30,838 bases of DNA from a virus (lineage: Duplodnaviria; Heunggongvirae; Uroviricota; Caudoviricetes). Position 1 is the stretch's first letter. Each line of letters opens with the position of its first letter. The translations under genes and the position numbers were made by a program. Of this stretch, positions 1,935-25,281 are shown piece after piece. The DNA lies in the IMG/VR virus record IMGVR_UViG_2917413769_000005; one strand, given 5' to 3'. A model generated the notes under the pieces. That model was not told where the DNA came from, did not search any database, and worked only from the letters and a program-made list of their open reading frames with translations.

Positions 1935-1987
1935 GCTTTCCCCCTTCTTCCGGCGAAGGATCCCACGCGCGCGGGAGATACCAAATC

Positions 1988-2016
1988 GGTTTTTGTTGTC
2001 ACCGTCCTGCCAGACC
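1988..2016. promoter_or_regulatory. conserved motif GGTTTT(T)GTTGTC-N9-CCAGACC in the divergent D/FI intergenic region; putative late promoter activator site
   Basis: Same motif with identical spacing recurs at 18035-18062 in the O/P divergent region; read on the minus strand it gives TCT-N12-ACA, close to the Ogr-site pattern TGT-N12-ACA. Confidence 0.4.
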
Positions 2017-2042
2017 CGTAATAGCGTGAGTGGCGGTCAAAC

Positions 2043-3269
2043 ATGGGGGATTATCACTGCGAACTCAATAACGTAATGGTGGAAACTATGGCGGAAGATC
2101 GCTTTCATGGTGCCCGCATCCGGGAGAATACCGACCTTGTGGCGGCTATCAATGACATTGAATCGAATGTCATTGGGGTCGTCGCCGTGGCGGATGATGC
2201 CGATGCGGAAGCCTTTCCCCTGAATACCCCCGTGTTAGTGACGCGGGTTAACAACGTGCTGGGTAAGGCGGGTAAAACCGGCTCCCTGTACAAAACGCTT
2301 AAGGCCATCGCTGACCAGACCAGCCCGAAGGTGATCGTTGTGCGCGTGGCAGCAGCTACGGAAGAGGAAGGCGGTAAAACGCAGGCACAGCTTATCATGG
2401 GCGGCACGGCAGAAGACGGCAGCTATACCGGCATGTACGCATTCCTGACGGCAGAACAGAAGGTCGGCTATCGTCCGCGCATTCTGGCTGTGCCGGGATA
2501 CGACACGGAAGAAGTGACCTCCGCGTTGTGCGTCATTGCGCAAAACCTGCGCGCGTTTGTCTATGCCAGTTGTTACGGCTGTAAGACGATGGCGGAAGCC
2601 ATCACCTATCGCGCAACCTTCGCCTACCGCGAACTTATGCTTATCTGGCCTGATTTCATCGCCTATAACCCGCTGACCGGAGAAAACGAAACCTTCCCGG
2701 CCCCGGCGTATGCCTGCGGCCTGCGTGCGCTGATTGACAACAATCAGGGCTGGCATAAATCGCTTTCCAACGTATCAGTCAACAACGTGCTGGGTATTTC
2801 TCAGGATGTTTTCTGGTCGCTTCAGGCAGAAGACAGCGACGCGAACGAACTGAACAACAAGGAGATCACGACGCTCATCAAGCGTAACGGATTCCGGTTC
2901 TGGGGAAACCGCGTCACGGATACCAAAGATTACATCTTTGAGGTTTATACCCGTACCGCCCAGATTCTGGCTGACAGCATTGCGGAAGCGCAGTTTGAGG
3001 CCATTGACGAACCGCTTACCCCAGCGAACGTCAAGGACGTGGTGAGCGGTATCAGCGGGAAACTCAGCTCGCTGGTGACGCAGGGGCGGCTAATCGGCGC
3101 TGAATGCTGGTTTGATATCCTGGATAACCCGACAACCGGGCTTCGACAGGGTCAGGTGCGCATTCGCTATAAATATACGCCGGTTCCGCCGATGGAGGAT
3201 CTGACGATGTACCAGACCTTCACCGATGAATACTTTGAATCGGCGTTCTCTTCGCTGGGAGGTGCATAA
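2043..3269 (+). CDS. FI: contractile tail sheath protein
   Basis: 408 aa; N-terminal MGDYH and overall pattern (DADAEAFPLN, RAFVYAS, GFRFWGNR, YKYTPVPPMEDL) match P2 FI. Confidence 0.9.
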   Translation: MGDYHCELNNVMVETMAEDRFHGARIRENTDLVAAINDIESNVIGVVAVADDADAEAFPLNTPVLVTRVNNVLGKAGKTGSLYKTLKAIADQTSPKVIVVRVAAATEEEGGKTQAQLIMGGTAEDGSYTGMYAFLTAEQKVGYRPRILAVPGYDTEEVTSALCVIAQNLRAFVYASCYGCKTMAEAITYRATFAYRELMLIWPDFIAYNPLTGENETFPAPAYACGLRALIDNNQGWHKSLSNVSVNNVLGISQDVFWSLQAEDSDANELNNKEITTLIKRNGFRFWGNRVTDTKDYIFEVYTRTAQILADSIAEAQFEAIDEPLTPANVKDVVSGISGKLSSLVTQGRLIGAECWFDILDNPTTGLRQGQVRIRYKYTPVPPMEDLTMYQTFTDEYFESAFSSLGGA

Positions 3270-3785
3270 ATGGCGGTTCCCCACAAACTGCGCCTGTTCA
3301 CCTGCTTTGTGAACGGCAGCAACTGCATCGGCAAAGTCTCTTCCGTGACGCTGCCAAAGCTGACACGTAAAACGGAAGACTTTCAGGGCGGCGGGATGAT
3401 TGGATCCGCTGCGGTGGATCTCGGTCTGGACAGTGGCGCGCTGGATACCACGATGGTGGTTGGCGGTCTGGTTCAGTCGCTTCTGCTGAACTACTGCGGC
3501 GATATCGACGAGACCCGCTTCCGCTTCGCCGGCGAGTATTACACCGATGGTGAAAGCCTGCTGGTTGAGGTCGAACTGCGCGGCCGCATCACCGAAATGG
3601 ACGGCGGTGAAAGCAAGCAGGGAGAAGACACCTCCGTCAGCTACACGATGAAGAACACCTACTACAAGCTCACCATCGACGATAAGCCGTTGTTTGAGTT
3701 TGATCTGCTGAACTTCATCTACAAGAAAGACGGCAAGAATATCTACCCTGACCGCATTACGTCTGCGCTGGGAATGGGTAACTGA
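3270..3785 (+). CDS. FII: tail tube protein
   Basis: 171 aa; VTLPKLTRKTEDFQGGGMIGSAAVDLGLD matches P2 FII; starts directly after the FI stop. Confidence 0.9.
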   Translation: MAVPHKLRLFTCFVNGSNCIGKVSSVTLPKLTRKTEDFQGGGMIGSAAVDLGLDSGALDTTMVVGGLVQSLLLNYCGDIDETRFRFAGEYYTDGESLLVEVELRGRITEMDGGESKQGEDTSVSYTMKNTYYKLTIDDKPLFEFDLLNFIYKKDGKNIYPDRITSALGMGN

Positions 3786-3833
3786 TTAACCTGATAAGTG
3801 GCGGCACACCCGTGCCGCCCGGAGTATTCAACA

Positions 3834-4151
3834 ATGAGCAAAAAAAACGATAACGCCATTACGCTGGCAAAACCCGTTGTTCGCGGCGATGAGAAAATTA
3901 CTCAGGTAACGATCACTGATGAGATCAAACAGGCTGGTTCCCTGCGCGGGCTGAAGCTGGTTAACGTGATGAATATGGATGTGGATTCAGTAGCGATATT
4001 GCTGACCCGCGTCACGTCACCGCGCCTCAAACAAACCGAGATCAACGAAATGGATACCCGTGATTTTGTCAGCCTGTCAGAAGCGCTCGTCCCTTTTTTG
4101 ACGCCTGCGGGGTCTGGAGCATCGAACGAGGCGGAGACGGAGAATCAGTAA
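3834..4151 (+). CDS. E: tail assembly chaperone E
   Basis: ATG at 3834 (MSKKNDNAITLAKPVVRGDEK) with GGAG 9 nt upstream; contains slippery T_TTT_TTG at 4094-4100 near its 3' end as in P2 E. Confidence 0.8.
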   Translation: MSKKNDNAITLAKPVVRGDEKITQVTITDEIKQAGSLRGLKLVNVMNMDVDSVAILLTRVTSPRLKQTEINEMDTRDFVSLSEALVPFLTPAGSGASNEAETENQ

Positions 4152-4312
4152 CACTCCTGCGGTTCGACCTGATCGACGATCTGGTCGCTGATATCGCGGT
4201 TGTTTTCAACTGGCCGCCCTCTGAAGTCTTCACGATGGAACTGGGCGAAGTCATAGCCTGGCGTGAGCGGGCGGCTGTCCGAAGTGGAGCCAGTGACAGT
4301 GAAAAGCCTTAA
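3834..4312 (+). CDS. tail assembly chaperone E+E' fusion made by -1 programmed ribosomal frameshift
   Basis: Slippery heptamer TTTTTTG at 4094-4100; the -1 frame reads on through ...WPPSEVFTMELGEVIAWRERAAVRSG... to TAA at 4310-4312, overlapping the start of T. Confidence 0.6.
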
Positions 4313-6797
4313 TATCCGCGTCGCGTTCAGCGCGATCGATAAACTTACCCGCCCGGTCAATGCCGCCCGCCAGAGTGCGGGCGGTTTGTCTGAATCCCTC
4401 AAAAAAACGCAATCCAGCATTAAAGATCTGGACAGCCAGTCCCGCACGTTCAACCGTCTGCGCGACAGCGTACAAAAGACCTCTCGCAAAATTGACGAAG
4501 CCAGCCGGACGCTTGAAGGGCTGAATCAGGCGCAGCGGGAAGGTACACAGCTTACAGACAAGCAAAAAGCACATATGGCAGCACTGGCCGCAAAGCTGGA
4601 GCGCCTTAACTCTGCACGCACGCAGGAAATGGTTAAGCTGCGTGCTGCCTCACAGGCGCTGCGCAGCCACGGCGTTTCACTGGTCGGCAGTGATCGCACC
4701 ATTCAGAGCGCGATACGTCGAACCGAACAGTACAACCAGACGCTGGAGCGGGAACGGCGACAGCTTGCCGCTGTCACACAGGCACGGGCGCGCTATGACC
4801 AGATGCAGCAAACAGCGGGTAAACTTCGCGGCGGTGGCACGATGGCCGTTGCCGGGGCCACTGCTGCCGGTTACGCAGCGGGACGCTTCTTATCCCCCGC
4901 TGTTGGGTTTGACCGGGAAATGTCCCGCGTGCAGGCGCTGACCCGTATAGATAAAAGCTCAACAGACTTTTCAGCACTTCGTGAACAGGCCAAAAAGCTG
5001 GGCGCTGAAACGCAGTTCACCACGACTGACGCCGCCAGCGGGCAGGCGTTTCTCGCTATGGCCGGTTTCACTCCGCAGGCCATTCAGGCAGCACTGCCCG
5101 GCGTGCTCAATATGGCACTGGCCGGTGGCATGGATTTAGGTGAAAGCGCCGATATCAGCTCAAACATCCTGTCTCAGTTCCGCCTCGATCCCAAAGAAAT
5201 GGATCGCGTCAGTGACGTATTAACTGGCGCGTTCACACGTACCAACACCGATCTGCAAAATATCGGTGAGGCTATGAAGTACGCCGGGACAGGTCTTTCC
5301 AATCTTGGCGTCAGTGTTGAACAGACAACAGCCATGATCGGCGTGATGGCAAACGTTGGCCTGCGCGGGAGTATCGCCGGGACAGGATTACAGGCCGCGT
5401 TTTCACGCCTTGCCGCGCCAACCGGCAGGGCAAAAACCGCTCTCAAAGAACTGGGAGTAGACGTTGCTGATGCCACGGGGAAAATGCGCCCTGCTGAAGA
5501 GGTTCTCACTGAACTCTATAAAAAGATCAGCAAGTACGGCGATACCGACAAGCTCTCTTTCTTTAAAGATATCGCCGGTGAAGAGGCGTCAAAGTCATTG
5601 CAGGCACTGGTTATGTCAGCCGGGAGCGGCGAACTTCAAAAGCTGCTGGAAGCACTGAAAAACGCCAAAGGTGAGGCACAGAAAGCCGCCAAAATAATGG
5701 CGGATAACCTTGATGGCGATCTCAAGAATCTGGACAGCGCATGGGAAGGGTTTCGCATCCAGATTAACGATCTCGTCGATAACCAGCTTCGCGCCCTGAC
5801 TCAGGGGCTGAGTGATGTTGTGGGGAATATGACGCAGTGGGCGAAGGAGAATCCGAAGCTCGCTCAATCCCTGCTGGTTGTCGGCGGCAGCATTCTGGCA
5901 CTGACCGCCGCCATTGGCGGCACATCGCTGGCGATCGGCCTGCTGATGGGGCCACTGGCTAAACTCCAGTTAGGTTTTACCCTATTGACAGGGGGCGCAA
6001 CCGGAACAATCTCCGCCCTACGAACGCTCGGAACAGCTTCCGGCCCGGCAATGGCAAGTGTGCGCGGTTGGGGGCCTGTTCTCACATCAATGCTTAGTAA
6101 GCTGCGAGGCATATCGATCATCACGCCCGGCATTCGTGCCGGTCTTATGGGTGCGTTTCTTTCCCCAGGGGCTGCATTAGGATCTCTGTTCAAAAACATC
6201 GGAATGCTCGCTCTTCGCCTGACAGGCTTTACGACCATATGGAGCATTATCACGACCTCAGTATCTGTACTGGGTGCAGCGCTCTCACTTCTACTTAGTC
6301 CGATTGGTCTGATAGCGGCGGCTTTTATCGCTGCCGGATTGCTAATCTGGAGATTCTGGGAGCCGATAAGAGCCTTTTTCACCGGTTTTTTCAGCGGAGT
6401 TATGCAGCAACTGGCACCTTTCCGTGATGCCTTTTTCCCTTTGACGCTGGCCTTCTCAGCAATAGCCAAAGTCGTTGGTGAAGTCTGGGACTGGTTTGTA
6501 AAACTCTTATCACCTGTGGAAAGTAGCCGTGAATCCCTTGATAAATGCGCATCAGCAGGGGAAACATTCGGTAAAGTCCTGGGTAGCGCCCTTCAGTTGC
6601 TGCTATTACCTCTGACAACCCTCATGGAAGGCATTGGCTGGGTACTGGAAAAACTCGGCCTTATCCCTTCTGGTCTGGAAGCTGCACGCCTGAAAGCTGA
6701 AAGCCTTAAAAAAGACCCTGTTATGTGGGAGTGGGATCCGCAGCAGAAAAAAAATGGTGCAAAAGGGATGGAACTGGTCGCCAGTCTCATCAGGTAA
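4299..6797 (+). CDS. T: tail tape measure protein, N-terminal and main part (frame 0)
   Basis: Long coiled-coil-rich then hydrophobic Gly/Ala-rich protein typical of tape measure proteins; likely GTG start at 4299 (GGAG 9 nt upstream; alternative starts 4263-4293); frame ends at TAA 6795-6797 just after an A8 run. Confidence 0.8.
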   Translation: MKSLNIRVAFSAIDKLTRPVNAARQSAGGLSESLKKTQSSIKDLDSQSRTFNRLRDSVQKTSRKIDEASRTLEGLNQAQREGTQLTDKQKAHMAALAAKLERLNSARTQEMVKLRAASQALRSHGVSLVGSDRTIQSAIRRTEQYNQTLERERRQLAAVTQARARYDQMQQTAGKLRGGGTMAVAGATAAGYAAGRFLSPAVGFDREMSRVQALTRIDKSSTDFSALREQAKKLGAETQFTTTDAASGQAFLAMAGFTPQAIQAALPGVLNMALAGGMDLGESADISSNILSQFRLDPKEMDRVSDVLTGAFTRTNTDLQNIGEAMKYAGTGLSNLGVSVEQTTAMIGVMANVGLRGSIAGTGLQAAFSRLAAPTGRAKTALKELGVDVADATGKMRPAEEVLTELYKKISKYGDTDKLSFFKDIAGEEASKSLQALVMSAGSGELQKLLEALKNAKGEAQKAAKIMADNLDGDLKNLDSAWEGFRIQINDLVDNQLRALTQGLSDVVGNMTQWAKENPKLAQSLLVVGGSILALTAAIGGTSLAIGLLMGPLAKLQLGFTLLTGGATGTISALRTLGTASGPAMASVRGWGPVLTSMLSKLRGISIITPGIRAGLMGAFLSPGAALGSLFKNIGMLALRLTGFTTIWSIITTSVSVLGAALSLLLSPIGLIAAAFIAAGLLIWRFWEPIRAFFTGFFSGVMQQLAPFRDAFFPLTLAFSAIAKVVGEVWDWFVKLLSPVESSRESLDKCASAGETFGKVLGSALQLLLLPLTTLMEGIGWVLEKLGLIPSGLEAARLKAESLKKDPVMWEWDPQQKKNGAKGMELVASLIR

Positions 6798-7281
6798 AAA
6801 CAATAACGGGAATACACCCCCGCCCGGAACGCCGCAACCCACATCACCGCTGACCGGCGATAACGGCACTATGCGTCGATTGCAGAACATCGACAGCAAC
6901 ACCAAAGCGACAGCCGACAACACGAAGAAGATCGGCCCCGGCGATATTGTATTTAAAAACCTGCCGCGTGCTCTGGCCGTTCGTGGGGAATGGAAAGAAT
7001 CGCAGCTGGCCAGCACGGTCAGGAACAACGGGTTAAGCGCACGCCCCGCAGTGGTGGCGGCATCGCTTCCCGTAAAACAGGCGGAACTTCCGCCAGTCAG
7101 CCGCAGCGCCAACAATATACCGGTTGCCACTGGCGGCTTTACGGGAGAAATCCACGTACACCTGCACGGCGTTGACCGGCAGGACGCGCGCGAAATTGGC
7201 CGCATTGCTGCCGACGCGGTGAATGCCGAAATTGCCCGCCTTGCGCGGCTTAATCGCGGCAGTTTCAAAGACAGAGATTAA
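6754..7281 (+). CDS. tape measure protein C-terminal segment in +1 frame (frameshifted T or separate ORF)
   Basis: Frame open from 6694; fills the T-U gap where P2 has no gene; ends ...IGRIAADAVNAEIARLARLNRGSFKDRD right before the U RBS; frame change coincides with A8 at 6747-6754. Confidence 0.5.
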   Translation: MVQKGWNWSPVSSGKNNNGNTPPPGTPQPTSPLTGDNGTMRRLQNIDSNTKATADNTKKIGPGDIVFKNLPRALAVRGEWKESQLASTVRNNGLSARPAVVAASLPVKQAELPPVSRSANNIPVATGGFTGEIHVHLHGVDRQDAREIGRIAADAVNAEIARLARLNRGSFKDRD

Positions 7282-7295
7282 GGGGAGGCAACATT

Positions 7296-7784
7296 ATGAT
7301 GATGATATATGGGATGTTCGTTTTTGAACTGAAGACGCTGCCTTACCAGCAACTGCGCCACTCGCTGAACTGGCGTCATGTGAAGAATGATCGCATCAAC
7401 CGATCGGCAAAATGGCAGTACATCGGCGCAGGTGAGACGCAGATCAACCTTGATGGAGTGCTCTACCCTGAAATTACAGGCGGAGACGTATCTCTTACCG
7501 TGCTGGCAACGCAGGCATACACTGGGCGTCCGTGGCCTTTAATCAGCGGCGCGGGGCAGATTTACGGGATGTATGTGCTGACCGGACTACAGGCCACGCA
7601 TACGGAATTTGACCGCTACGGAAAGGCGAAAAAAATAGAGTTTTCGATCAGCTTCCAGCGCTGCGATGAAGACCTGCGCGAACGCCTGCAAGCGTCGTCT
7701 GTTGGCGATCTGCTTTCAGGGCTGAAGGATAAAGCCACGTCCGCCTATAATTCTGCCAGTAGTACGCTGTCGGGCCTGTTCTGA
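7296..7784 (+). CDS. U: tail protein U
   Basis: 162 aa MMMIYGMFVFELKTLPYQQLRHS...GVLYPEITGG pattern of P2 gpU family; strong RBS AAGGGGAGG 7 nt upstream. Confidence 0.85.
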   Translation: MMMIYGMFVFELKTLPYQQLRHSLNWRHVKNDRINRSAKWQYIGAGETQINLDGVLYPEITGGDVSLTVLATQAYTGRPWPLISGAGQIYGMYVLTGLQATHTEFDRYGKAKKIEFSISFQRCDEDLRERLQASSVGDLLSGLKDKATSAYNSASSTLSGLF

Positions 7785-7826: not shown

Positions 7827-7936
7827 TCCGGAACACACCGCCATAACTGACTGTGCTACAGCACCGTTAAAAATGACTGTACTCGATACGCACGGCCAGC
7901 ACGGTTATAACCGGCCATACGTGCCGGAATGAAAAC

Positions 7937-8533
7937 TTATTCCGGCTTATCCGGCCAGATGATATCCGGCGCTTTTGACGTGTCCACCGCCTGCACGGCT
8001 TTGATGTAGTGCATCCAGACGATCAGGCTAGTTTTATCTTCATCGCTGATAATGCCTAACTGTAGCTCCGTCTGCCAGAGACTGATCGTTGCCTGACCCC
8101 CACTCAATAACGCTGTTTTCTGTTGCTCTGCCGCTTCCACGTCCGCCGCGTGCTGCGCTTTGGTATCCGTCACCCACTCGCTACCGTTCCACGTATCGTA
8201 TGGCGTAGACGGTGCCAGCGTAGTGGTTTTTTCCGGATAATCACCCGGCGCAGTAATGGAAACCTCTTCACCTGTTTCAGTGCTGTATACCGTTTCGCCA
8301 CGATGATCAGCAACGTATTCCCACGCTTTCAAATCGGCTGTCCGGCAAATAGCCGAACCGGCTTTAGCCTCGCCCGGGGCGTCAGTACAGGAATTTGCGG
8401 GAAGACCTACTCCTATAGCCAAATACTCAACTGATGAAGAAAGGTATTCTCGCGTCTCGCCCTCGTAGTTAAACACTGTGATTTCACCTGCCACCGTGGC
8501 AATAAGTTCACTGTTTAATTTTGCCTGCGTCAT
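7937..8533 (-). CDS. G: tail fibre assembly chaperone
   Basis: 198 aa; C-terminal ...LWQTELQLGIISDEDKTSLIVWMHYIKAVQAVDTS..PDIIWPDKPE typical of tail fibre assembly proteins; ATG overlaps the H stop (TAATG). Confidence 0.8.
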   Translation of the reverse strand: MTQAKLNSELIATVAGEITVFNYEGETREYLSSSVEYLAIGVGLPANSCTDAPGEAKAGSAICRTADLKAWEYVADHRGETVYSTETGEEVSITAPGDYPEKTTTLAPSTPYDTWNGSEWVTDTKAQHAADVEAAEQQKTALLSGGQATISLWQTELQLGIISDEDKTSLIVWMHYIKAVQAVDTSKAPDIIWPDKPE

Positions 8534-11048: not shown

Positions 11049-11403
11049 TGCTGCCACTCCTGAGCGTCAGCGCACTGCCTGCCGTCTGCATGGTTTCGGT
11101 GATAATGCCGACCAGTTCAGCGGTGACAACGCCATCCTTTGAATAACTGATATTGATGCCGTTCAGGGCAATACGCGGCTCCCACATCGTCAGGGCGATC
11201 ACCGCCGCACTCATACATTGCAGGCGCGTCACTTCGTTTTGCGGTTCATCCAGCAGATCGGGGATCATGCTGCCATAATCCCGCCGCATCACCCGGCTTG
11301 CCAGCGGCGTGGTCAGTATGTCGCGCACTGAATTCCACAGCTGATCGGTATCGGTAAGCTGGCCCGTGCCGTCCGGGTTCATGCCAATATAGCGGACTGT
11401 CAT
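11035..11403 (-). CDS. W: baseplate assembly protein W
   Basis: 122 aa MTVRYIGMNPDG...RVMRRDYGS... matches P2 gpW; ATG overlaps the V stop (ATGA). Confidence 0.85.
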   Translation of the reverse strand: MTVRYIGMNPDGTGQLTDTDQLWNSVRDILTTPLASRVMRRDYGSMIPDLLDEPQNEVTRLQCMSAAVIALTMWEPRIALNGINISYSKDGVVTAELVGIITETMQTAGSALTLRSGSNGNS

Positions 11404-11981
11404 TTCGGCCCCCCGGTGTTGCTGCTGCCACCCTGCACACCACTATGTACGTGCGAATGAACCGTCACCCCGTTAGACGTAAGCGATCCGCCAGAATGGG
11501 TAACATTGCCCTTCATCGTGCCGCCCTCCGACAGTTCGAACGTCCGCGCTTTCAGATGGTCGGTACATTCTACAATCGGTGTTTCAAGCGTGACGCTGGC
11601 AGAGGCTTTGATATGTGCTGTCTTCATGCCCTGCGCTTCCAGCGCGCTGGCTTCTGCGTCATAGCGGAAAGAGGCTCCGTCTGGCGCTGTCAGCACAATC
11701 TCTTTCAGGCTGCTGCCCGGCGCAGGGTTGTCACTGCTGTAGAGACTGCCGATAATGACCGCTGTTTCAGGGTTGCCACCGATACAGCCCAGCCAGACCT
11801 GCTCACCCACGGAAGGCGGCACCCAGATACTGAATGCTCCGGCGCGCGTGGTGTTCCAGCGCAGCCAGTCGGTCTGAAGCTCGCCGCTTTGCACGCGCAC
11901 GCGCCAGCTCTCTTCATCAACAGCAATAACGACGCCGACGCGGAGGATATTTTCCAGCAGGCGGATCAGTTCAGCGCTCAT
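11400..11981 (-). CDS. V: baseplate spike/assembly protein V
   Basis: 193 aa with ...WLRW...VGEQVW...G..THSGG..SNGVTVHSHVHSG... typical of P2 gpV; ATG overlaps the S stop. Confidence 0.85.
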   Translation of the reverse strand: MSAELIRLLENILRVGVVIAVDEESWRVRVQSGELQTDWLRWNTTRAGAFSIWVPPSVGEQVWLGCIGGNPETAVIIGSLYSSDNPAPGSSLKEIVLTAPDGASFRYDAEASALEAQGMKTAHIKASASVTLETPIVECTDHLKARTFELSEGGTMKGNVTHSGGSLTSNGVTVHSHVHSGVQGGSSNTGGPK

Positions 11982-12616
11982 CGTGCGGCACTCCCCAGGC
12001 TGTTAACCACCTGTTCCGTAATCATCCGCTCATCGCCAGCGGTAAAGCCCAGCAGCTCACGCACCGGATATTTAGCAAAGGCACCCGGCCCGACCTGATC
12101 GCGCTGGCCGTACTGGTGCACACGCGCAATGCGTGCCACCACACCGTCATAACCCACGGAAGTGCCGCCAGCATCAGCGCGCATTTTGAGAAAGCGATAG
12201 CTGCGCAGCCTCTGAAACATCGGCACTTTCTTTGCGGTGCTGCGGCGCACTGAGCGTGTATTGATCTCGATGTAACGCTCAATGTCGCTGCGGTAAAAGG
12301 TGCGAATATCGTTGCGCTCTTCGTCAAAGCCGGTAATGGTTCGCCCGTATTTTCCCCGGCCACCGTGCCAGTTTTTGAGGCGGCGGATCTCGCCCTGCCA
12401 GACAAACACAATGCCCTGTTGAGAACGTAGCACCCGGCGACGGCGGGCAGGATATGGCGAGCCTTCCGGGTTTTGCTGGGCTTTAATGCGCTGTTGCTGG
12501 CTCTTTCGCAGTGCCTGACCAACCGCGCGGGCGGTGCGAATACGTCCGGCCTGAGAGGTGCCCGCCAGTATGTCGCTGAAGACCTGATCCAGCTCACGGA
12601 AGAGATCGTTACTCAT
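11978..12616 (-). CDS. S: tail completion / virion morphogenesis protein (S-like)
   Basis: Sits between R and V as in P2; 212 aa; ATG 12616 with GGGAGG RBS, overlapping the R stop. Confidence 0.65.
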   Translation of the reverse strand: MSNDLFRELDQVFSDILAGTSQAGRIRTARAVGQALRKSQQQRIKAQQNPEGSPYPARRRRVLRSQQGIVFVWQGEIRRLKNWHGGRGKYGRTITGFDEERNDIRTFYRSDIERYIEINTRSVRRSTAKKVPMFQRLRSYRFLKMRADAGGTSVGYDGVVARIARVHQYGQRDQVGPGAFAKYPVRELLGFTAGDERMITEQVVNSLGSAAR

Positions 12617-13079
12617 GGGCGTCAGCCTCCCATGTCACATCCTCAAAGATGGCGCTCCAGTCACCGTCCGCTGACGGGATGCGCGGCTTAGGCTCCGGCA
12701 AATGTTCCGCGCGCGGAATGCCGTTTGCATCCAGAGTGACCTTCACGCGCTCGCGCAGCGGCATTTCAAAAAGAATGTCGGCGGTATCGTCGTTGTTGAT
12801 AAGGGTCGTAAATTTAATGTCCCGGTTTTTCTCAGGGTTCAGCAGCAGATCGGGCTGGTTGTGCCAGAGCCATGCCATTAACGGCAACGTGAAATCATCA
12901 ATATCACCGGCAAAATTCATCACAAACAGCACCAGGGTATAACGGTACATAAACGATGGTGTTTCGCCGGTCGTCTCGATGTTCCCTTCTTCCACAAAAA
13001 CGGTGAAGGCTTCAGGGTTGGCCCTGCACCATTTGTTAGCGCTGGTCAGGGTCTCGCGGAGTGAATCAGCTTTTAACAT
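12609..13079 (-). CDS. R: tail completion protein R
   Basis: MLKADSLRETLTSA...YRYTL...LMAWLWHNQPD matches P2 gpR; RBS AAGAGGT. Confidence 0.8.
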   Translation of the reverse strand: MLKADSLRETLTSANKWCRANPEAFTVFVEEGNIETTGETPSFMYRYTLVLFVMNFAGDIDDFTLPLMAWLWHNQPDLLLNPEKNRDIKFTTLINNDDTADILFEMPLRERVKVTLDANGIPRAEHLPEPKPRIPSADGDWSAIFEDVTWEADAHE

Positions 13080-13083
13080 GGCG

Positions 13084-13614
13084 CTACCTCTTAGGCGGAG
13101 TCGCTATTGAACCGTATGCGGCTTCACAGGCCAGCCCTCTGGCTCTTGCCTCATCAGCCTCTCTTGCCAGCTCTCCCGCTCGCTCGTCAGCGCGGCGGAA
13201 CAGGTCGGCGAGCAATACGGCTCCGCTGGTTTCTGTCTCGCCTCTGCCGGTAGTACCGGCACCGCAGGCGCGTTCACGTTCTTCCAGTTGCTTAGCGAGT
13301 TTATCGGCCCTGTCGTGCAGCCCACGAGAAGCAGCACGGGCACGATCGGCATCAGCCTGGACGCCAGCAAGCTGCTGGCGGGCTTGTTTTCTGATCTCAT
13401 CAACTTCCCCCTGTCGGCGTTGTTCTTCTTCCCTGGCCTCTACCTGACGCTTAGCCAGTTCTGTAGCATCGTCAGCATCACGCTGTTTCCATTTCAGCGC
13501 CCAGGCCGTATTAGCCTGACGGGTGCCGTGCCATGAACCAGAAAAGAACGCGCCCCCCAGAATTAGCGCAACCAGAAGGACGCGCCAGTGTGACCTGAAC
13601 CATGCCGGAATCAT
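13084..13614 (-). CDS. i-spanin (Rz/LysB-like)
   Basis: Start ATG 13612-13614 overlaps the endolysin stop (ATGA); N-terminal TM segment WRVLLVALILGGAFF followed by charged coiled-coil region. Confidence 0.7.
   Translation of the reverse strand: MIPAWFRSHWRVLLVALILGGAFFSGSWHGTRQANTAWALKWKQRDADDATELAKRQVEAREEEQRRQGEVDEIRKQARQQLAGVQADADRARAASRGLHDRADKLAKQLEERERACGAGTTGRGETETSGAVLLADLFRRADERAGELAREADEARARGLACEAAYGSIATPPKR
13104..13352 (-). CDS. o-spanin lipoprotein (Rz1/LysC-like), fully embedded in the i-spanin gene in another frame
   Basis: Embedded ORF with signal peptide and lipobox (MPIVPVLLLVGC), Pro-rich mature part; start could instead be at 13403. Confidence 0.55.
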   Translation of the reverse strand: MPIVPVLLLVGCTTGPINSLSNWKNVNAPAVPVLPAEARQKPAEPYCSPTCSAALTSERESWQERLMRQEPEGWPVKPHTVQ

Positions 13615-14000
13615 GCAGGGTAAACCGCATAAGGTAGCTGGAAGTGCGGCCCATCTTTCAGGGTCTTCCAGTCGCCGCCCCATTCAACGGGAATATTCAG
13701 CTCTTTGCCTGCCTGTTTGAAGGCGTCGGAAATCTGCTGGTAATATTTCCAGTCCCATGAGCCTGCCGGAGTGGGGTACGCAAACACATCCACCGCATGG
13801 CCTGAAATATGCCTGCTGTTCATCGTCTGGCTTTTCCCCTCAGCAACAAGCTGTTTTTGCCGCTCAACAGAGCGCAACCCTTCGGTGATACCAAAATCGA
13901 CGGCTGAAATCTGAAGGGCACGACGGACGATTTTCACAAGGTCAGCGTTAACACCTTTCAGGTTATTTTCACTTCTCTGACTGAATTTAAATTCACTCAT
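13611..14000 (-). CDS. endolysin, L-alanyl-D-glutamate peptidase type (M15-like)
   Basis: MSEFKFSQRSENNLKGVNADLVKIVRRAL...SRHISGHAVDV...WGGDW resembles T5-type peptidase endolysins; lies between holin and spanins. Confidence 0.7.
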   Translation of the reverse strand: MSEFKFSQRSENNLKGVNADLVKIVRRALQISAVDFGITEGLRSVERQKQLVAEGKSQTMNSRHISGHAVDVFAYPTPAGSWDWKYYQQISDAFKQAGKELNIPVEWGGDWKTLKDGPHFQLPYAVYPA

Positions 14001-14322
14001 TTCCTTTCGCTCCCCCGATACGGGTTTCAATAAAGCCGGTCACTTTGTTGCGTACCTTGTCAGCCCCCATAAATCCGATTGACGCACCCACGAAGGTGAC
14101 GGCATTGGATGGCAGGCCCAGATATTCAAGCGATCCGGCAACCGCCAGCGTGACAATCCCGCAGACCAGTGAACCGGTGGCGGTTTTCAGCATTGACTGG
14201 CCGTCATACAGACTCATCAGCGCCGATATGCTCAACGCTGCACCTGCCGCGTAGAGCGTCGGCAGATATGTAGCAATCCATTTCATTGTTTGTTCCAGCA
14301 TCCCCGTAGGTACGTCGCTCAT
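13993..14322 (-). CDS. holin
   Basis: 109-aa protein with hydrophobic membrane segments, directly upstream of the endolysin; ATG 14322 with GAGAGG RBS. Confidence 0.65.
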   Translation of the reverse strand: MSDVPTGMLEQTMKWIATYLPTLYAAGAALSISALMSLYDGQSMLKTATGSLVCGIVTLAVAGSLEYLGLPSNAVTFVGASIGFMGADKVRNKVTGFIETRIGGAKGNE

Positions 14323-14331
14323 GGCAACCTC

Positions 14332-14532
14332 TCAATCCCAAAGCTGCACCATCTCCCGCTGCGCTTTGCTCGCGATTTCCGGCAGTTCAATCTCCTGACC
14401 GGCATCAAGAAAAACCTGCTGGCTCAGTCCGGGATTGGCAGATAACACTTTTTCGGTCACGCCCTGGGTGGTGCCGTAGTGACGCCAGCAAAGCAAATCC
14501 ACCGTATCCCCCTGCAATGCCTTCACTTTCAT
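14332..14532 (-). CDS. X: tail protein X (LysM-like)
   Basis: MKVKALQGDTVDLLCWRHYG...VLSANPGL matches P2 gpX; start overlaps the L stop (TGATG). Confidence 0.8.
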   Translation of the reverse strand: MKVKALQGDTVDLLCWRHYGTTQGVTEKVLSANPGLSQQVFLDAGQEIELPEIASKAQREMVQLWD

Positions 14533-19857: not shown

Positions 19858-20915
19858 TGAAGAAGCGCACCTACAAAAACAAACACACCGCCAGCAGTGG
19901 CAGTGCCGGACAGCCTGATATCTCTGACGCGCTCAGAAGCGATCCGGCGCTCAGCGCCTTCACGTTTGACGGGCCATATTCGGTAACAGACGGCTATGAT
20001 CTGCTGGACAGCATGTGCTGCGTCGATAACGGCCGGTACTACGAGACGCCAATAGACTGGAAGGGGTTAACCCGTGCGTTCGCACAGTCCCCACTGCATC
20101 AGTCGGCGCTTTACTTCAAACGCAATGTGCTGACCGGGTGCTATATCCCTCATCCGTTACTCTCGCGGCAGGCCTTCTCTGCGTTTGCGCTGGACTGGTT
20201 TGTCTTCGGCAATGCCTATCTTGAGCGTCGGTCTAATCGCCTGGGAGAGCCGCTAAAACTTAAGCATGTTCCGGCGCTGAACACGCGACGGGGAAGCGAT
20301 CTTGATACCTACTGGTTTATCCGGCAGTGGAAAGATGAATATGAGTTCAAGGCGGGCGAGGTCTGCCACATCATGAACCCGGACATTCATCAGGAAATCT
20401 ACGGTATGCCGGAATACATGGGGGCGCTTCTGTCCGCCAGCCTGTCACATTCCGCCGATAAATTCCGCAAACTCTATTACGACAACGGCTCCCATGCCGG
20501 ATGCATTCTCTATGTCGGTTCGGAGAAGGTGGATCAGGAAAGCATAAAGGTGGTGCAAAAAACGCTGTCACAGGCCAGAGGGAAAGGCTCCTTCAAAAAC
20601 GTGCTGATCCACGCGCCGGGTGGCGGCAAAGACGGCGTGCAACTGTTGCCGTTCAGCCAGATATCGGCAAAGGATGAGTTTCTTAACATCAAATCAGCAA
20701 CGCGCAACGATTTGCGCGACGCTCACCGCATCCCGCCGCAACTGATGGGCGCAATGCCGGAAGGCAACGGATCGCTCGGTGATGTTGAGAAGGCTGCGCG
20801 TGTCTTCGCCATCAACGAAATGTTGCCCGTGATGGAAGCAATGAAGGGCGTCAATGACTGGCTCGGTCAGGAAGTGATCCGCTTTAATCCCTACGCTCTA
20901 CTCAAAGACGAGTGA
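19857..20915 (+). CDS. Q: portal protein Q
   Basis: 352 aa P2 gpQ-like portal. Confidence 0.9.
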   Translation: MKKRTYKNKHTASSGSAGQPDISDALRSDPALSAFTFDGPYSVTDGYDLLDSMCCVDNGRYYETPIDWKGLTRAFAQSPLHQSALYFKRNVLTGCYIPHPLLSRQAFSAFALDWFVFGNAYLERRSNRLGEPLKLKHVPALNTRRGSDLDTYWFIRQWKDEYEFKAGEVCHIMNPDIHQEIYGMPEYMGALLSASLSHSADKFRKLYYDNGSHAGCILYVGSEKVDQESIKVVQKTLSQARGKGSFKNVLIHAPGGGKDGVQLLPFSQISAKDEFLNIKSATRNDLRDAHRIPPQLMGAMPEGNGSLGDVEKAARVFAINEMLPVMEAMKGVNDWLGQEVIRFNPYALLKDE

Positions 20916-20925
20916 CCCGCCCCAC

Positions 20926-20960
20926 CCGCCGCACATCCTGCGGCGGTTCTCCTTCAGTTA
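20926..20960 (+). terminator. rho-independent terminator after Q
   Basis: Perfect hairpin CCGCCGCA-CATCC-TGCGGCGG at 20926-20946 followed by T-rich TTCTCCTTCAGTTATTTTC. Confidence 0.6.
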
Positions 20961-21282
20961 TTTTCAATTCCCGTATGACCGGCCACCACCTGAGCACCAC
21001 TCAGCACAACCTTAACCCCCCTCACTCAGAGCGCATTAGCGCCACTCTGGCAGGCGCAATCTGCATTTTACCCCGAACACATCCAGAAGTGAGAAAAACG
21101 CGCGGAGAAGGCGAAAAAGGCCGGAGAATGGCAATTAAAGGCATCACCTCCCGACCCTCCGTCGCGTGGGCTGTTCCCCCGTCACCTGCGCGCGACATTT
21201 GCTTCGTTTTTTGTGCATTTCCCGATCTGGGGGCAGACCGCGCCACCACAGGGCGGAAAGGTCATAAACAGCATCAAAAAAA

Positions 21283-21309
21283 TTGTGCAAATTTGTGCAC
21301 TATTGTGCG
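21283..21309. repeat. three TTGTGC(A/G) direct repeats at 10-bp phasing (plus a fourth TTGTGCA at 21211), inside the probable cos/packaging region
   Basis: TTGTGCA at 21283 and 21293, TTGTGCG at 21303; non-coding stretch between the convergent ends of Q and doc. Confidence 0.4.
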
Positions 21310-21366
21310 ACAGAGAAAGAAGGCCCGGAGGGAAGAAAAGCCGCCTTTAAAAGACAGCTTCTCATG

Positions 21367-21750
21367 TCAGTGGGGATTGATGGATAGTCGGCGCAAAACA
21401 GCAGCAACATCGCCACTGCTTAATGAACCCGTCGCTGCGGATACGGTCAGTTCTTCCAGTTCATTACCTTCATCACGGATATCAATACCATTGCGCTTTA
21501 AAAAAGCCATCGCAACGAAAAAGGCGGTTCGCTTATTGCCGTCATTGAAGATATGACCACGCGAAATGGCGACGAGATACATCGCAGCGAGTTCGTGAAT
21601 ATCCTCAACGCCTTCATAGTAAAGCTGGTTCTGAACACGATAAATGATCGCCTCTGCTCTTCCCGGTTCTGGCATCCCCTGAACGCCGGGCAAAGCTGCA
21701 AGCAGACGATCATGAAACGCTATCACCTCCTGAGCGCTGATCCATTTCAT
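21367..21750 (-). CDS. doc: Doc toxin (Fic-fold)
   Basis: Strong resemblance to P1 Doc including HIFNDGNKRTA Fic-type motif and PGRAEAIIYRVQ; ATG overlaps the phd stop. Confidence 0.85.
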   Translation of the reverse strand: MKWISAQEVIAFHDRLLAALPGVQGMPEPGRAEAIIYRVQNQLYYEGVEDIHELAAMYLVAISRGHIFNDGNKRTAFFVAMAFLKRNGIDIRDEGNELEELTVSAATGSLSSGDVAAVLRRLSINPH

Positions 21751-21968
21751 CTGTCAGCCAGCGCCTTAATGGTACGACCGTGTCGCCCCATAATTTCAGC
21801 AAATTCAGCATCCAGTTTTGCTTCCTGCCACGCATTGAAATCATCCCGGCTGATAAGCACAGCGGCAGAGCCATCGCGGCGGGTAATTTCTACAGGCTCG
21901 CCAGCCGTAGCCGCCTCCATTACCTCAGCAATATTTTGCCGGGCCTGAGATGTGGTATAGGTTCGCAT
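21747..21968 (-). CDS. phd: Phd/YefM-family antitoxin
   Basis: MRTYTTSQARQNIAEVMEAATAGEPVEITRRDGSAAVLIS...AKLDAEFAEI resembles P1 Phd; strong RBS AAGGAGGT 5 nt before ATG 21968. Confidence 0.8.
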   Translation of the reverse strand: MRTYTTSQARQNIAEVMEAATAGEPVEITRRDGSAAVLISRDDFNAWQEAKLDAEFAEIMGRHGRTIKALADR

Positions 21969-22195: not shown

Positions 22196-22705
22196 TCAGA
22201 AAACTGGATTAATTTTGCGGTGGTAGAGCACTTCCCACAGAAGCGATATCAACTCTTCCTGCCTGATATCCACGGCTTCACTGGCGTCATATTTAGCCAT
22301 CAGCTCATTGATTCGCTCAACAGACAATGGCCCTGCGGAATTTACCGCTGATCGGGAAGATGGGAGACAGCTTTCTTCAGGCGGATGCTCTTCACGCCAT
22401 TTCTTTGCCGCCCTCTCATTCATCAACTGCCATTCGGGATATCGGTTAAATAGCTCACGCTCGGTACTGGTTCGCGCATCATGGCCTTCATCTGCCAGCC
22501 GCGCTGGTTCTGGCTCGCAGCTTTCAGACAAAGCAATATCGTCGGGAGCGTCAAACGGTTTTAACCCCTTGCAGGTGCAGCAAATGCGATCATTAAAATA
22601 ATACTTTTCCTTGTAGTGCAGCTCGTTACCACACTTACGGCATCGCTTAATTTTGTTACTGATGAAATCAATTACTTCCTGCTCTCGCTGTTCTTCGTCA
22701 AACAT
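22196..22705 (-). CDS. hypothetical zinc-ribbon protein
   Basis: Cys cluster CRKCGNELHYKEKYYFNDRICCTCKG; sits where P2 has orf91; 5' end overlaps the 3' end of A; start uncertain (22705 or 22747). Confidence 0.5.
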   Translation of the reverse strand: MFDEEQREQEVIDFISNKIKRCRKCGNELHYKEKYYFNDRICCTCKGLKPFDAPDDIALSESCEPEPARLADEGHDARTSTERELFNRYPEWQLMNERAAKKWREEHPPEESCLPSSRSAVNSAGPLSVERINELMAKYDASEAVDIRQEELISLLWEVLYHRKINPVF

Positions 22706-25281
22706 ACGCGCTGCCCCTGATTCCTGGTGCCAAACAACCTGTCCCACGCAGCCGGATCAGCTTTTTTCAACATTTCCGCATAGCTGCCAACGGGATCATG
22801 CCTGATATCTCTGCTGTCAACATTATGACTTAGCTTCATATGCTGCCACAAATCGGCAGTCTTACGGTCAGCTCCGTTATCTTTTCTGCGCCTCAGCTCT
22901 CCGCTGCTGGTTGCGGAGACAATAAAGCCATCAATTCGCAAACGCTCACCGCGTAGCAATAACGTTAACTGACCTGTGCTCAGTTCTATGCCTATAGATT
23001 TGGCAAAATCATCCAGTGCCGCAATGCGATCGACTGATACAGGAACTGGCCCGGTAACAGCAGGCATATCCCTTTCCTGCTGCCTCAATTCCTGAGCAAC
23101 TTTTAGATAGCTCTCGGCCCTGGCCTGCTCAATATCATCACAATCTGATGCCGTAATGGCATTAGCCAGCGCCTCAAACTCATCAGCAGGTGATTTTTGC
23201 CGTTCCGGTTTGTAGTTTCTGATGCTTTCGTTGAGCCTTTTTTTCTGCTCGTGGGTCATTTGACCAATTTCATACTGTTCAGGCTCAACTGGTGGCGAAT
23301 TTTCACCCTCTGAATTTGTATGTTTTTTGACCTCAGTACAGTTATTGACACGAGTCCTAGAGGGCGCGGACGCGCCCCGAAGGTCAAAATCAAAGTCAAC
23401 GGCCTGCCCGGAGTCGTCTAAAACTTCCGGTTTCTTACGCACAATGCGGTAGGTATGCAGGCGGGTTTCAATTGGTGGGATGTGAACGGCCGGCATCATC
23501 AGACCTTTGATAAGATCCAGATACTCGCCGTAATCATTTGGTTCGTCTTTCTGCTGGTACCAAATGCGCAACGGCAGATCACGGCGGGCAACCAACGCCC
23601 CGCCTTGCAATTGGGTGTATTGCTGCCAGTCGCCAGCATCCGCAGCACGGTGCAGCTCAGCAAATAGCGGGTTTATCTTGTCGGCCTGTTCCTGATTGCG
23701 GAACCGGCGCAGCTCACGCCAGACAGATACCGGCGCGCCGCCCAGAAACTGAAACTGACGGATGCCCCAGCAAGATGCCCAGGCGGTTGCATGTTTTGAA
23801 GTTTCTTTCAGCGGCCTGCCGCTCTCGTCGTCGGTTTCACCGTCGAGCGCGTAGCCGTCAATATTCTTACTGATGTACTTCACCACATAGCCGGTGGCGC
23901 TGCCGATTTCATGATCGATCGGCTTCATATCAAAACGCGGTTGGTTGCCGTGTTTGCCCTGCAACTCTTCCGCATCCTCGCGGGTTGCGTAGTCTTCCAT
24001 CACTTCCAGCAGCTCGGCAGAATGTTCCGGCAGGGAGAACAGCAGGCCGTGCCAGTGCGGCGTACCATCGTGATGAGACTCAGCCACCCGCAAACCAAAA
24101 ACAGGGATTTCACGGCGGGCCAGCTCAGCGCGGATCTGTTGCCATACCCGGTTAAGATAACGCTGCGTGGCTCTTGGGCTGGCACCGTTCCATTTGGCAT
24201 TACGATGACCGAATACGGTATATGCGTGGTATTTGGATGGCGCTGTCAGGGTAAAAAACTGTCCCGCGTATCCGCTTTCGGTGGCGACTTTCTCAAAACC
24301 ACCAATGCGGGTCATGAGTTCAACGCGGCGTAATGCTGGATTAGAAATGCTCTTATCGATCTGCTCAATAAGCGAAATACGCTCTTTGGTGTCCTGGTCT
24401 TCCAGCTCAAGGCGAGCCATGATCGCGCGGCTGCGTTTGCGCCTGGCATCCCACTCATCAACGTGGTGCTTACTGCAATAAGGCGCAGCGCCCCGCTTCA
24501 CATCACCAAAGGCGATATGCAGGTGCTCACGCCAGCGCGCCGCGTACTTTTTCAGGTTACGATGCCAATAGCGATCATCCAGCATCTTACTGATGCCAGT
24601 AGTAGCCTCATCAATAAACAGCGTTCCCCGGCAATACTTTGCCCAGCTCGGAGGCGTCAGGAAGAAAAGCCGCGCGAGGATAGCCGCTTCGGTGTAAAGG
24701 TATCCGGCATATTTGCGATCACTCTGAGTCTCTACCGTTTCGTGAACTTCGCTCAGCACAGACCGCATATAGATAGCAATATCCTGCGCCAGCAGCTCAA
24801 CATCTTCCGGCGTGAAATCCGGCAGGCGGTTAAAGCGCTCAACCAATCCGTGAAGAGTGTGAAACGTGTGGTAAAGCGGGTTTACCCCTTTGAATGCTGT
24901 ATCAGCCTGAGATTTAGCCTCATCGGTCACCGCAATAGCGTATTGCTCATTCACCATGTTGATGGGCGGGAGATCCCTGCGAATAATATCGCGTAGCGCC
25001 AGACGGGCGATGTGCCTGCCCTTCATGGTGTGAATGCTGTCAATACGGGAAGCCAGACGCAGGCGAATAAAGCGAGGTAGCGGCGCAAGGGTAACTTTCA
25101 CCCACGCCAAAAACTCCTGTTCTTGACCCAGCTCGACTAGATCAACAACGGGAGTCTTATCAACACAAATGGCAGCTTTCGGCTTCTGCCATTCGTAAGC
25201 GTACCGGGTGGCGTCTGGTGCGCTACCCGGATACGGAGGGGGCGGCGTTGGAGCGCCACGCCCACTGGCTGCGGTGGTCAT
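22672..25281 (-). CDS. A: replication initiation endonuclease A (rolling-circle HUH type)
   Basis: 869 aa; HUH-like motif ESHHDGTPHWHGLLF and Tyr region GYVVKYISKNIDGY as in P2 gpA; position upstream of the cos-proximal accessory slot. Confidence 0.85.
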   Translation of the reverse strand: MTTAASGRGAPTPPPPYPGSAPDATRYAYEWQKPKAAICVDKTPVVDLVELGQEQEFLAWVKVTLAPLPRFIRLRLASRIDSIHTMKGRHIARLALRDIIRRDLPPINMVNEQYAIAVTDEAKSQADTAFKGVNPLYHTFHTLHGLVERFNRLPDFTPEDVELLAQDIAIYMRSVLSEVHETVETQSDRKYAGYLYTEAAILARLFFLTPPSWAKYCRGTLFIDEATTGISKMLDDRYWHRNLKKYAARWREHLHIAFGDVKRGAAPYCSKHHVDEWDARRKRSRAIMARLELEDQDTKERISLIEQIDKSISNPALRRVELMTRIGGFEKVATESGYAGQFFTLTAPSKYHAYTVFGHRNAKWNGASPRATQRYLNRVWQQIRAELARREIPVFGLRVAESHHDGTPHWHGLLFSLPEHSAELLEVMEDYATREDAEELQGKHGNQPRFDMKPIDHEIGSATGYVVKYISKNIDGYALDGETDDESGRPLKETSKHATAWASCWGIRQFQFLGGAPVSVWRELRRFRNQEQADKINPLFAELHRAADAGDWQQYTQLQGGALVARRDLPLRIWYQQKDEPNDYGEYLDLIKGLMMPAVHIPPIETRLHTYRIVRKKPEVLDDSGQAVDFDFDLRGASAPSRTRVNNCTEVKKHTNSEGENSPPVEPEQYEIGQMTHEQKKRLNESIRNYKPERQKSPADEFEALANAITASDCDDIEQARAESYLKVAQELRQQERDMPAVTGPVPVSVDRIAALDDFAKSIGIELSTGQLTLLLRGERLRIDGFIVSATSSGELRRRKDNGADRKTADLWQHMKLSHNVDSRDIRHDPVGSYAEMLKKADPAAWDRLFGTRNQGQRVCLTKNSESRK

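Follow-up and report, generated by a model that had tools for sequence, protein, structure and literature searches.

Introduction

In the record of phage P2, five lysis genes (Y, K, lysA, lysB and lysC) lie between the tail genes X and R; lysA is marked as non-essential, and lysC overlaps R. A 2018 census of spanins assigned the overlapped architecture to all 15 phages of the P2 outer-membrane spanin (o-spanin) family, i.e., to P2 and 14 relatives (PMC6139136). Embedded o-spanin genes, according to the same census, typically run from about 0.4-0.5 L to 0.9-1 L, where L is the length of the inner-membrane spanin (i-spanin) gene, in roughly 70% of cases (Kongari et al., PMC6139136). Here, we describe the lysis cassette of a P2-like prophage in a stretch of 30,838 nucleotides (IMG/VR virus record IMGVR_UViG_2917413769_000005; the whole stretch is hereafter called the window). 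An original prediction, made from the letters of the window alone, held that the spanin genes of this cassette are arranged as in phage lambda rather than as in P2. Comparison with the two reference records bears this out. In P2, lysC (8202-8492) runs past lysB (7922-8347), whereas in lambda Rz1 lies wholly within Rz, in the +1 frame, as does the o-spanin gene of the window. The likeness to lambda holds for the architecture only, and not for the spanin sequences. We regard it as highly probable that the locus is a complete holin/endolysin/embedded two-component-spanin lysis cassette in the late operon of a P2-like (Peduoviridae) prophage.

Layout of the lysis cassette

Flanked by tail genes X and R, the cassette fills the slot of the late operon in which P2 has its lysis genes. 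All of its genes are on the minus strand, according to both the listing of open reading frames (ORFs) and a direct reading of the sequence. Positions refer to the window.

13993..14322, minus strand: holin, 109 amino acids; lambda S family (class I)
13611..14000, minus strand: endolysin, 129 amino acids; predicted soluble M15 metallopeptidase of the L-alanyl-D-glutamate endopeptidase type
13084..13614, minus strand: i-spanin, 176 amino acids; Pfam DUF2514, PHROG 312
13104..13400, minus strand: o-spanin, nested in the i-spanin gene in the +1 frame; precursor of 98 amino acids; PHROG 11621
13317..13328, minus strand: predicted o-spanin lipobox L-V-G-C, read from the sequence
13406..13412, minus strand: Shine-Dalgarno-like AGGGGGA, 5 nucleotides upstream of the o-spanin ATG, read from the sequence
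14332..14532, minus strand: tail gene X (P2 gpX homologue), upstream boundary of the lysis slot; Phage_tail_X, E = 2e-23; 49% identity to P2 X
12609..13079, minus strand: tail completion gene R (P2 gpR homologue), downstream boundary; P2_Phage_GpR, E = 3e-40; 39% identity to P2 R

The stop codon of the holin gene and the start codon of the endolysin gene overlap in ATGAGTGA, sharing 8 bases, and the endolysin stop and the i-spanin ATG overlap in ATGA, sharing 4 bases. Only 4 nucleotides separate the i-spanin stop from gene R. The RefSeq boundaries of the i-spanin and of tail gene X, taken from a 99.2%-identical E. coli prophage, agree with this layout, and the interval to which the original prediction had assigned the spanin pair (13084-13614) coincides exactly with the i-spanin gene. 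Two other start codons were considered and rejected. An upstream ATG at 13683 would give an i-spanin of 199 amino acids, and a TTG at 14030 a longer endolysin. In both cases the relatives and RefSeq start at the stop/start overlap, and the homologues of the endolysin in the PDB align from residue 2-4. A promoter and terminator scan of the coding strand of the cassette yielded nothing above the shuffle expectation.

The nested o-spanin gene

As had been proposed, a lipoprotein ORF is wholly embedded out of frame in the i-spanin gene (13104-13400 within 13084-13614). It is read from the same strand in the +1 frame, ends 20 nucleotides before the i-spanin stop, and hence lies fully inside the larger gene, spanning 0.40 L to 0.96 L, a position typical of embedded o-spanin genes in the census. 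Both products match PHROGs annotated as ‘Rz-like spanin’: the o-spanin matches PHROG 11621 (E = 4e-17) and the i-spanin PHROG 312 (E = 7e-51, profile positions 3-169 of 173). The predicted signal peptide of the o-spanin is MRSENKPASSLLASRLMPIVPVLLLVG, which begins with MRSENK, has an n-region with Arg and Lys followed by a hydrophobic core, and ends in LLLVG directly before the Cys. The lipobox LVGC fits the consensus [LVI][ASTVI][GAS]C (PMC6139136). The mature protein would have 71 amino acids, starting with Cys28-Thr-Thr and containing 10 Pro and two more conserved Cys in the motif C-x-P-T/S-C. The residue after the lipidated Cys (position +2) governs the sorting of lipoproteins, with Asp as the signal for inner-membrane retention. 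In the o-spanin this residue is Thr and not Asp, and the protein should accordingly be sorted to the outer membrane. A start at the second Met of the nested ORF (MPIVP...) was ruled out, because several relatives have Leu there; the first ATG (13400) was therefore taken as the start of the o-spanin.

The nested frame might be a chance ORF, never expressed, in a GC-rich and stop-poor gene, in which case the DUF2514 protein alone, or nothing at all, would disrupt the outer membrane. To this extent its length is weak evidence, because 6.8% of codon shuffles of the i-spanin gene yielded an ORF of 98 or more amino acids in another frame of the same strand. Moreover, an antisense ORF of 128 amino acids (13061-13447, plus strand) extends across the larger part of the spanin overlap; it probably arises because the dual-coding sequence is GC-rich and poor in stop codons. 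The exact 98-amino-acid protein is also absent from a collection of 15 billion proteins and carries no annotation in RefSeq, but gene callers are known to miss embedded genes, which would explain the missing annotation. The properties of the encoded protein, in contrast, speak against chance. A lipoprotein-like ORF (defined by a Met, an n-region with K or R, a canonical lipobox and a mature part of at least 40 amino acids) arose in only 0.46% of the codon shuffles, and the nested ORF matches PHROG 11621.

Conservation and dual-coding constraint

We compared the cassette with 40 related loci, found in four annotated records, five bacterial genomes and 31 viral contigs. Together they provided 30 distinct intact i-spanin genes and, with the o-spanin of the window added to 27 from the related loci, 28 distinct o-spanins. 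The nested +1 ORF was present in all 30 i-spanin genes. The first ATG, the lipobox [LA][VT]GC and the motifs C-x-P-T/S-C, with its two Cys, and L-P-x-x-A-R-Q-x-P were kept in 28 of the 28 o-spanins, and a Shine-Dalgarno-like A(A/G)GG(T/G)GA stood at the same distance from the o-spanin ATG in all close relatives. ORF and lipobox were retained down to about 57-65% identity of the i-spanin, and two much more distant contigs (L040, L041) still carried the motif L-P-x-x-A-R-Q-x-P ... C-x-P-T-C. The original prediction had named two findings that would speak against a functional nested gene, namely the lack of a functional lipobox and the lack of conservation in homologous regions. Instead, the predicted lipobox and the ORF are both kept in the relatives.

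Codon-position entropy, calculated in the i-spanin frame across the 30 distinct i-spanin genes, gave a consistent picture. Third-position entropy was 0.93 in the periplasmic codons 36-71, which lie outside the overlap, and only 0.56 within it (Mann-Whitney p = 1e-4), whereas the first and second codon positions did not change between the two regions (p = 0.67). Past the o-spanin stop, third-position entropy rose again to 1.17. In codons 121-130 the pattern was inverted, with an entropy of 0.99 at position 1 and of 0.17 at position 3, which implies that selection in this segment follows the +1 frame. The i-spanin/o-spanin overlap is under dual-coding constraint. With the suppression of wobble-position variation confined to the overlap, and with the frame inversion within it, we consider a chance ORF extremely improbable.

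The relatives also differed in several respects. The i-spanin gene was frameshifted in a few of them (L010, L029, L039). The o-spanin stop shifted among lineages, lying 5 to 53 nucleotides before the i-spanin stop (window 13104-13130; L003, L004, L019-L037), and o-spanins of the window type had an additional C-terminal tail, WPVKPHTVQ, that is missing from many relatives. The variable position of the stop agrees with reports that the extreme C-terminus is dispensable.

The i-spanin

The i-spanin matched Pfam DUF2514 over nearly the entire profile (E = 3e-28, 99.3 bits against a cutoff of 26, profile positions 1-159 of 161). Its sole hydrophobic peak comprises residues 10-30 and would form an N-terminal transmembrane helix, encoded at about 13525-13587 of the window. 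A single-sequence AlphaFold2 model (mean predicted local distance difference test score 79) has helices at residues 5-117 and 131-170, joined by a Gly/Thr-rich coil at 118-130. Hence, the periplasmic part is modelled as helix-linker-helix, as described for lambda Rz, and the topology would be that of a protein anchored at its N-terminus. A sequence search of the PDB with the i-spanin returned no relevant structure. Cys163 was invariant and Cys117 was present in 22 of 30 relatives. Periplasmic Cys residues are thus present in both spanins and would be available for the predicted intermolecular disulfides.

Holin and endolysin

The holin matched Pfam PF05106 (Phage_holin_3_1; E = 1e-20, 74.4 bits against a cutoff of 23.8), TIGR01594 (holin_lambda; 61.0 bits, above the curated cutoff of 55.05) and PHROG 126 (holin/anti-holin). 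It shares 25% identity with lambda S over 81 amino acids (BLASTP, E = 1e-8). A GAGG sequence is located 5 nucleotides upstream of its ATG. The N-terminus (window 14281-14322) is MSDVPTGMLEQTMKW, in which Met8 is replaced by Val in close relatives. The lambda-type Met-Lys-Met dual start is absent from this N-terminus, and no basic residue lies between the alternative starts. A dual start is a feature of lambda S itself and is not demanded of every member of the lambda S family.

The original prediction of a peptidase-type endolysin, rather than a lysozyme, was supported by a match to Pfam PF13539 (Peptidase_M15_4; E = 2e-12, above the cutoff) and by homology to solved L-alanyl-D-glutamate endopeptidases. 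The endolysin aligned end to end with three of these, namely 23ri (E = 4e-54), 8q2g (E = 5e-52) and Serratia ChiX (5opz, E = 2e-47), and more distantly, over residues 3-116, with the phage T5 endolysin (2mxz, E = 4e-20). It also matched PHROG 465 (‘endolysin’; E = 2e-71). The sequence contains the motifs S62-x-H64-x-x-G67-x-A69-x-D71 and D116-x-x-H119, and in the alignment with ChiX the residues SRHISGHAVD (H64, D71) and DGPH (D116, H119) are identical. We take the motif residues to be the zinc ligands His-x6-Asp ... His and the catalytic Asp of the M15 family. Accordingly classified by homology, the endolysin is an M15 peptidase of the L-Ala-D-Glu endopeptidase type, with a predicted bond specificity. 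It has no hydrophobic 19-residue window and no signal or signal-arrest-release segment, and would thus be soluble and dependent on the holin.

The same combination of families occurs in the type 10 secretion system (T10SS) of Serratia (chiWXYZ) and Yersinia entomophaga (YenLC). One could therefore propose that the cassette works, or doubles, as a T10SS-like module that releases proteins for the benefit of the host. This proposal draws on the holin and endopeptidase, which are of the ChiW and ChiX families with a full-length alignment to ChiX, and on the lack of an obvious dual start in the holin. ChiW itself, a holin of the phage holin-3/lambda S family, likewise has no obvious dual start (PMC4259817). 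T10SS loci are, however, chromosomal, located outside prophages and beside cargo and regulator genes (PMC10847048). The cassette of the window is instead part of a late morphogenetic operon, between X and R, in a P2-like prophage that appears complete, and its overlapping genes point to translational coupling. Next to it there is no gene for cargo, a toxin or a chitinase and no dedicated regulator, and the same slot in P2 carries the phage's own lysis genes. A role in protein release for the host is therefore very improbable.

The P2 slot and exchange of the lysis module

Homologues of P2 L, X, R, S, V and W were found in the window (tblastn against the whole window, 25-49% identity). In contrast, P2 Y, K, LysA, LysB and LysC had no homologue anywhere in the window (best E values of 0.05-2.2; 0.78 for LysA). 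The overlapping stop and start codons leave no room for a gene between the endolysin and the spanins. On both counts, the proposed absence of a lysA-like gene at this position was correct. The endolysin adjoined the i-spanin in the same way in the annotated relatives and in most loci. In the other loci, the endolysin and the i-spanin were separated by about 75-150 nucleotides, which is too short for a gene of the size of lysA. These results cover the loci in which the endolysin was identified by one of two reference endolysins, i.e., all but L022, L023 and L026.

The closest deposited phage was Enterobacter phage phiT5282H (Peduoviridae, Novemvirus), with 93.9% identity over 76% of window positions 1-25000, a match that takes in the majority of the structural genes. 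The two sequences matched up to tail gene X and not across the lysis genes; between X and R, phiT5282H carries a different holin, endolysin and spanin (L042 2545-4008 versus window 13084-14322). The difference between phiT5282H and the window is a replacement of the whole cassette at a fixed slot.

Exchange was also seen within the cassette. Where the holin and the DUF2514 spanin were the same, the cassettes had either an M15 peptidase or a lysozyme as endolysin, each in about half of the 40 related loci. In one pair of E. coli prophages, for example, the flanks are about 97% identical, and in CFSAN051542 a lysozyme (L002 2718-3158) replaces the peptidase. The cassette is a swapped module in the P2 slot, non-homologous to that of P2 in every lysis gene.

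Prophage context

The window contains a full P2-like prophage, with genes for capsid, terminase, portal, sheath, tube, tape measure, baseplate, fibre, replication protein and integrase. An intact cassette may nevertheless reside in a defective or cryptic prophage and never be used. Such decay is seen among the relatives, where the terminase gene M of CFSAN051542 has an internal stop and three loci have the frameshifted i-spanins mentioned above. In the window, however, all late genes are full-length ORFs with strong family matches. Furthermore, the lysis genes are under purifying selection across many hosts, and deposited phages of the lineage share either the spanin family (SEN4/SEN5) or the backbone (phiT5282H). 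We therefore consider disuse in a cryptic prophage unlikely.

Several other features of the prophage were noted. Tail gene S (11978-12616) shares 4 nucleotides (11978-11981) with tail gene V (11400-11981), whereas in the P2 record the two genes are set apart by a terminator, orf30 and a separate promoter for V. The head, lysis and tail genes of the window appear to form one uninterrupted transcription unit. The block of sheath, tube, E, tape-measure and U genes (2043-7784) is on the plus strand, while gpD (798-1934) and the fibre, baseplate, lysis and head genes are on the minus strand. Relative to the gene order of P2, the FI-to-U block is presumably inverted. The arrangement at 798-7784 is collinear with phiT5282H.

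Just downstream of the portal gene, two plus-strand ORFs of 214 amino acids (20912-21556) and 131 amino acids (21553-21948) overlap by 4 nucleotides; neither had a match in PHROGs, Pfam or PADLOC. The slot next to the portal gene in P2-like phages often holds accessory or defence cargo. Two overlapping DNA methyltransferase genes on the minus strand (25278-26297, PHROG 363; 26294-27184, PHROG 56) adjoin the gene of an 869-amino-acid replication/nicking protein at 22672-25281.

Public annotation of the cassette

The exact i-spanin sequence is deposited as WP_135495388.1, a ‘DUF2514 domain-containing protein’ of Escherichia sp. E1130, and RefSeq and UniRef name the i-spanin a ‘DUF2514 family protein’. 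The endolysin and the holin are common multispecies proteins of Enterobacteriaceae. The nested o-spanin, in contrast, was annotated in none of the four related annotated records. A homology search with the nested protein recovered only 13 proteins, most of which have 149-171 amino acids compared to 98 in the query. Six of the 13 carry DUF2514 plus a domain in the o-spanin frame, PF28595, according to the precomputed annotation of the database. We read the long homologues of 149-171 amino acids as over-long or frame-mixed gene calls.

Hence, public records routinely list only three genes for a complete lysis cassette of four, and one of the three is labelled as being of ‘unknown function’. The main value of the present analysis lies in the correction of this annotation. 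The locus also illustrates the modular exchange of lysis cassettes, which will not surprise a specialist in phage lysis.

Proposed lysis pathway

By analogy with the canonical holin-endolysin-spanin pathway, the lambda-S-type holin would build up in the inner membrane and, at a defined time, perforate it. Through the holes, the soluble M15 L-Ala-D-Glu endopeptidase would then reach the peptidoglycan and cleave its peptide stems. The o-spanin would be translated from its own ribosome-binding site within the i-spanin gene, in the +1 frame. The N-terminal helix would anchor the i-spanin in the inner membrane, and the lipoprotein o-spanin would be attached to the outer membrane, such that the C-terminal parts of the two proteins, predicted to form a disulfide-bonded complex, would already span the periplasm. 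Once the meshwork of the wall is removed, the spanin pair would collapse and fuse or disrupt the outer membrane, thereby finishing lysis.

Three points weigh against this reading of the locus as a complete lysis cassette. No antiholin could be recognised in the cassette, which has neither lysA nor a holin dual start. The nested ORF was assigned to no family in local Pfam and NCBIfam scans; of the family scans, only PHROGs recognised it. Finally, the label DUF2514 still stands for ‘unknown function’ in Pfam and RefSeq, and no experiment on this spanin family is known. Nevertheless, none of the observations contradicts a lysis cassette.

Comparison with known systems

The cassette resembles that of phage lambda in gene order (holin, endolysin, spanins) and in having a holin of the lambda S family. 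As in lambda, the whole o-spanin gene is contained in the i-spanin gene in the +1 frame, and the relative position is similar, from 0.48 to 0.87 L in lambda and over a somewhat larger part of the gene in the window. In both, the i-spanin consists of a membrane helix at the N-terminus and a periplasmic helix-linker-helix domain (predicted in the window), the o-spanin is a short Pro-rich lipoprotein, and both spanins have periplasmic Cys. The proteins themselves differ. BLASTP revealed no similarity between the i- and o-spanin of the window and lambda Rz and Rz1 (no match better than E = 0.6), and the i-spanin belongs to the DUF2514 family and not to the Rz family. The mature o-spanin has 71 amino acids compared to 40 in lambda, the endolysin is a peptidase whereas that of lambda is a transglycosylase, and the holin lacks the Met-Lys-Met dual start of lambda.

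With P2 Y-K-lysA-lysB-lysC, the cassette shares the slot from X to R and the homologous surroundings (L, X, R, S, V and W). It differs in that the spanin genes of P2 overlap, with lysC extending past lysB into R, whereas those of the window are embedded. In addition, P2 has the membrane protein LysA between its endolysin and spanins, and its endolysin K is a lysozyme-type enzyme. A peptide-motif search of the supplementary tables of the 2018 census found nothing of the spanin family described here.

Phage T5 has a similarly small, single-domain M15 peptidase without signal sequence (2mxz). ChiX and 8q2g are, however, much closer to the endolysin of the window than the T5 enzyme is, and T5 differs in its holin and has spanins of the overlapped class (PMC6139136).

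The T10SS of Serratia and Y. entomophaga combines a holin of the lambda S family, a ChiX-type M15 L-Ala-D-Glu endopeptidase and a two-component spanin, as does the window; the families in common are those of ChiW and ChiX in Serratia and of HolA and PepB in Yersinia. The T10SS spanins are drawn as two cistrons (PMC4259817, PMC10847048). Unlike the T10SS genes, the cassette of the window belongs to an operon for virion assembly and has neither cargo nor regulator genes beside it. The combination of a lambda-family holin without dual start, a ChiX-type endopeptidase and nested DUF2514 spanins, with no recognisable antiholin, is widespread in P2-like prophages of Enterobacteriaceae. Cassettes of such prophages, which share the holin and endopeptidase families with the T10SS, may represent the phage lineage from which the chromosomal T10SS (chiWXYZ, YenLC) were recruited, although we consider this origin unlikely.

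Counterparts are also found in the same group of phages. The Salmonella phages SEN4 and SEN5 (Peduoviridae, Senquatrovirus) have a lambda-family holin, an endolysin, a DUF2514 i-spanin with nested lipoprotein ORF, and then R. The i-spanin of SEN5 is 69% identical to that of the window and is labelled ‘Rz-like spanin’ in RefSeq. In a tblastn search, only SEN4/SEN5 and an Erwinia phage were recovered as deposited phages with a match to the i-spanin at E <=1e-5, a number that the low-complexity filter probably keeps too small because the protein is rich in Ala, Arg and Glu. The P2-like prophages of E. coli XYEH3783, ECONIH4 and CFSAN051542 carry the same type of cassette in the same slot, with 99.2% identity over 1.7 kb in XYEH3783. 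Differences concern the endolysin, which is a lysozyme instead of an M15 peptidase in SEN4/SEN5 and CFSAN051542, and the end of the o-spanin, which is reached 27-33 nucleotides earlier in several lineages. The cassette of the window is ordinary and standard in kind: it is a variant of a module that is already present in sequenced Peduoviridae and in many enterobacterial prophages.

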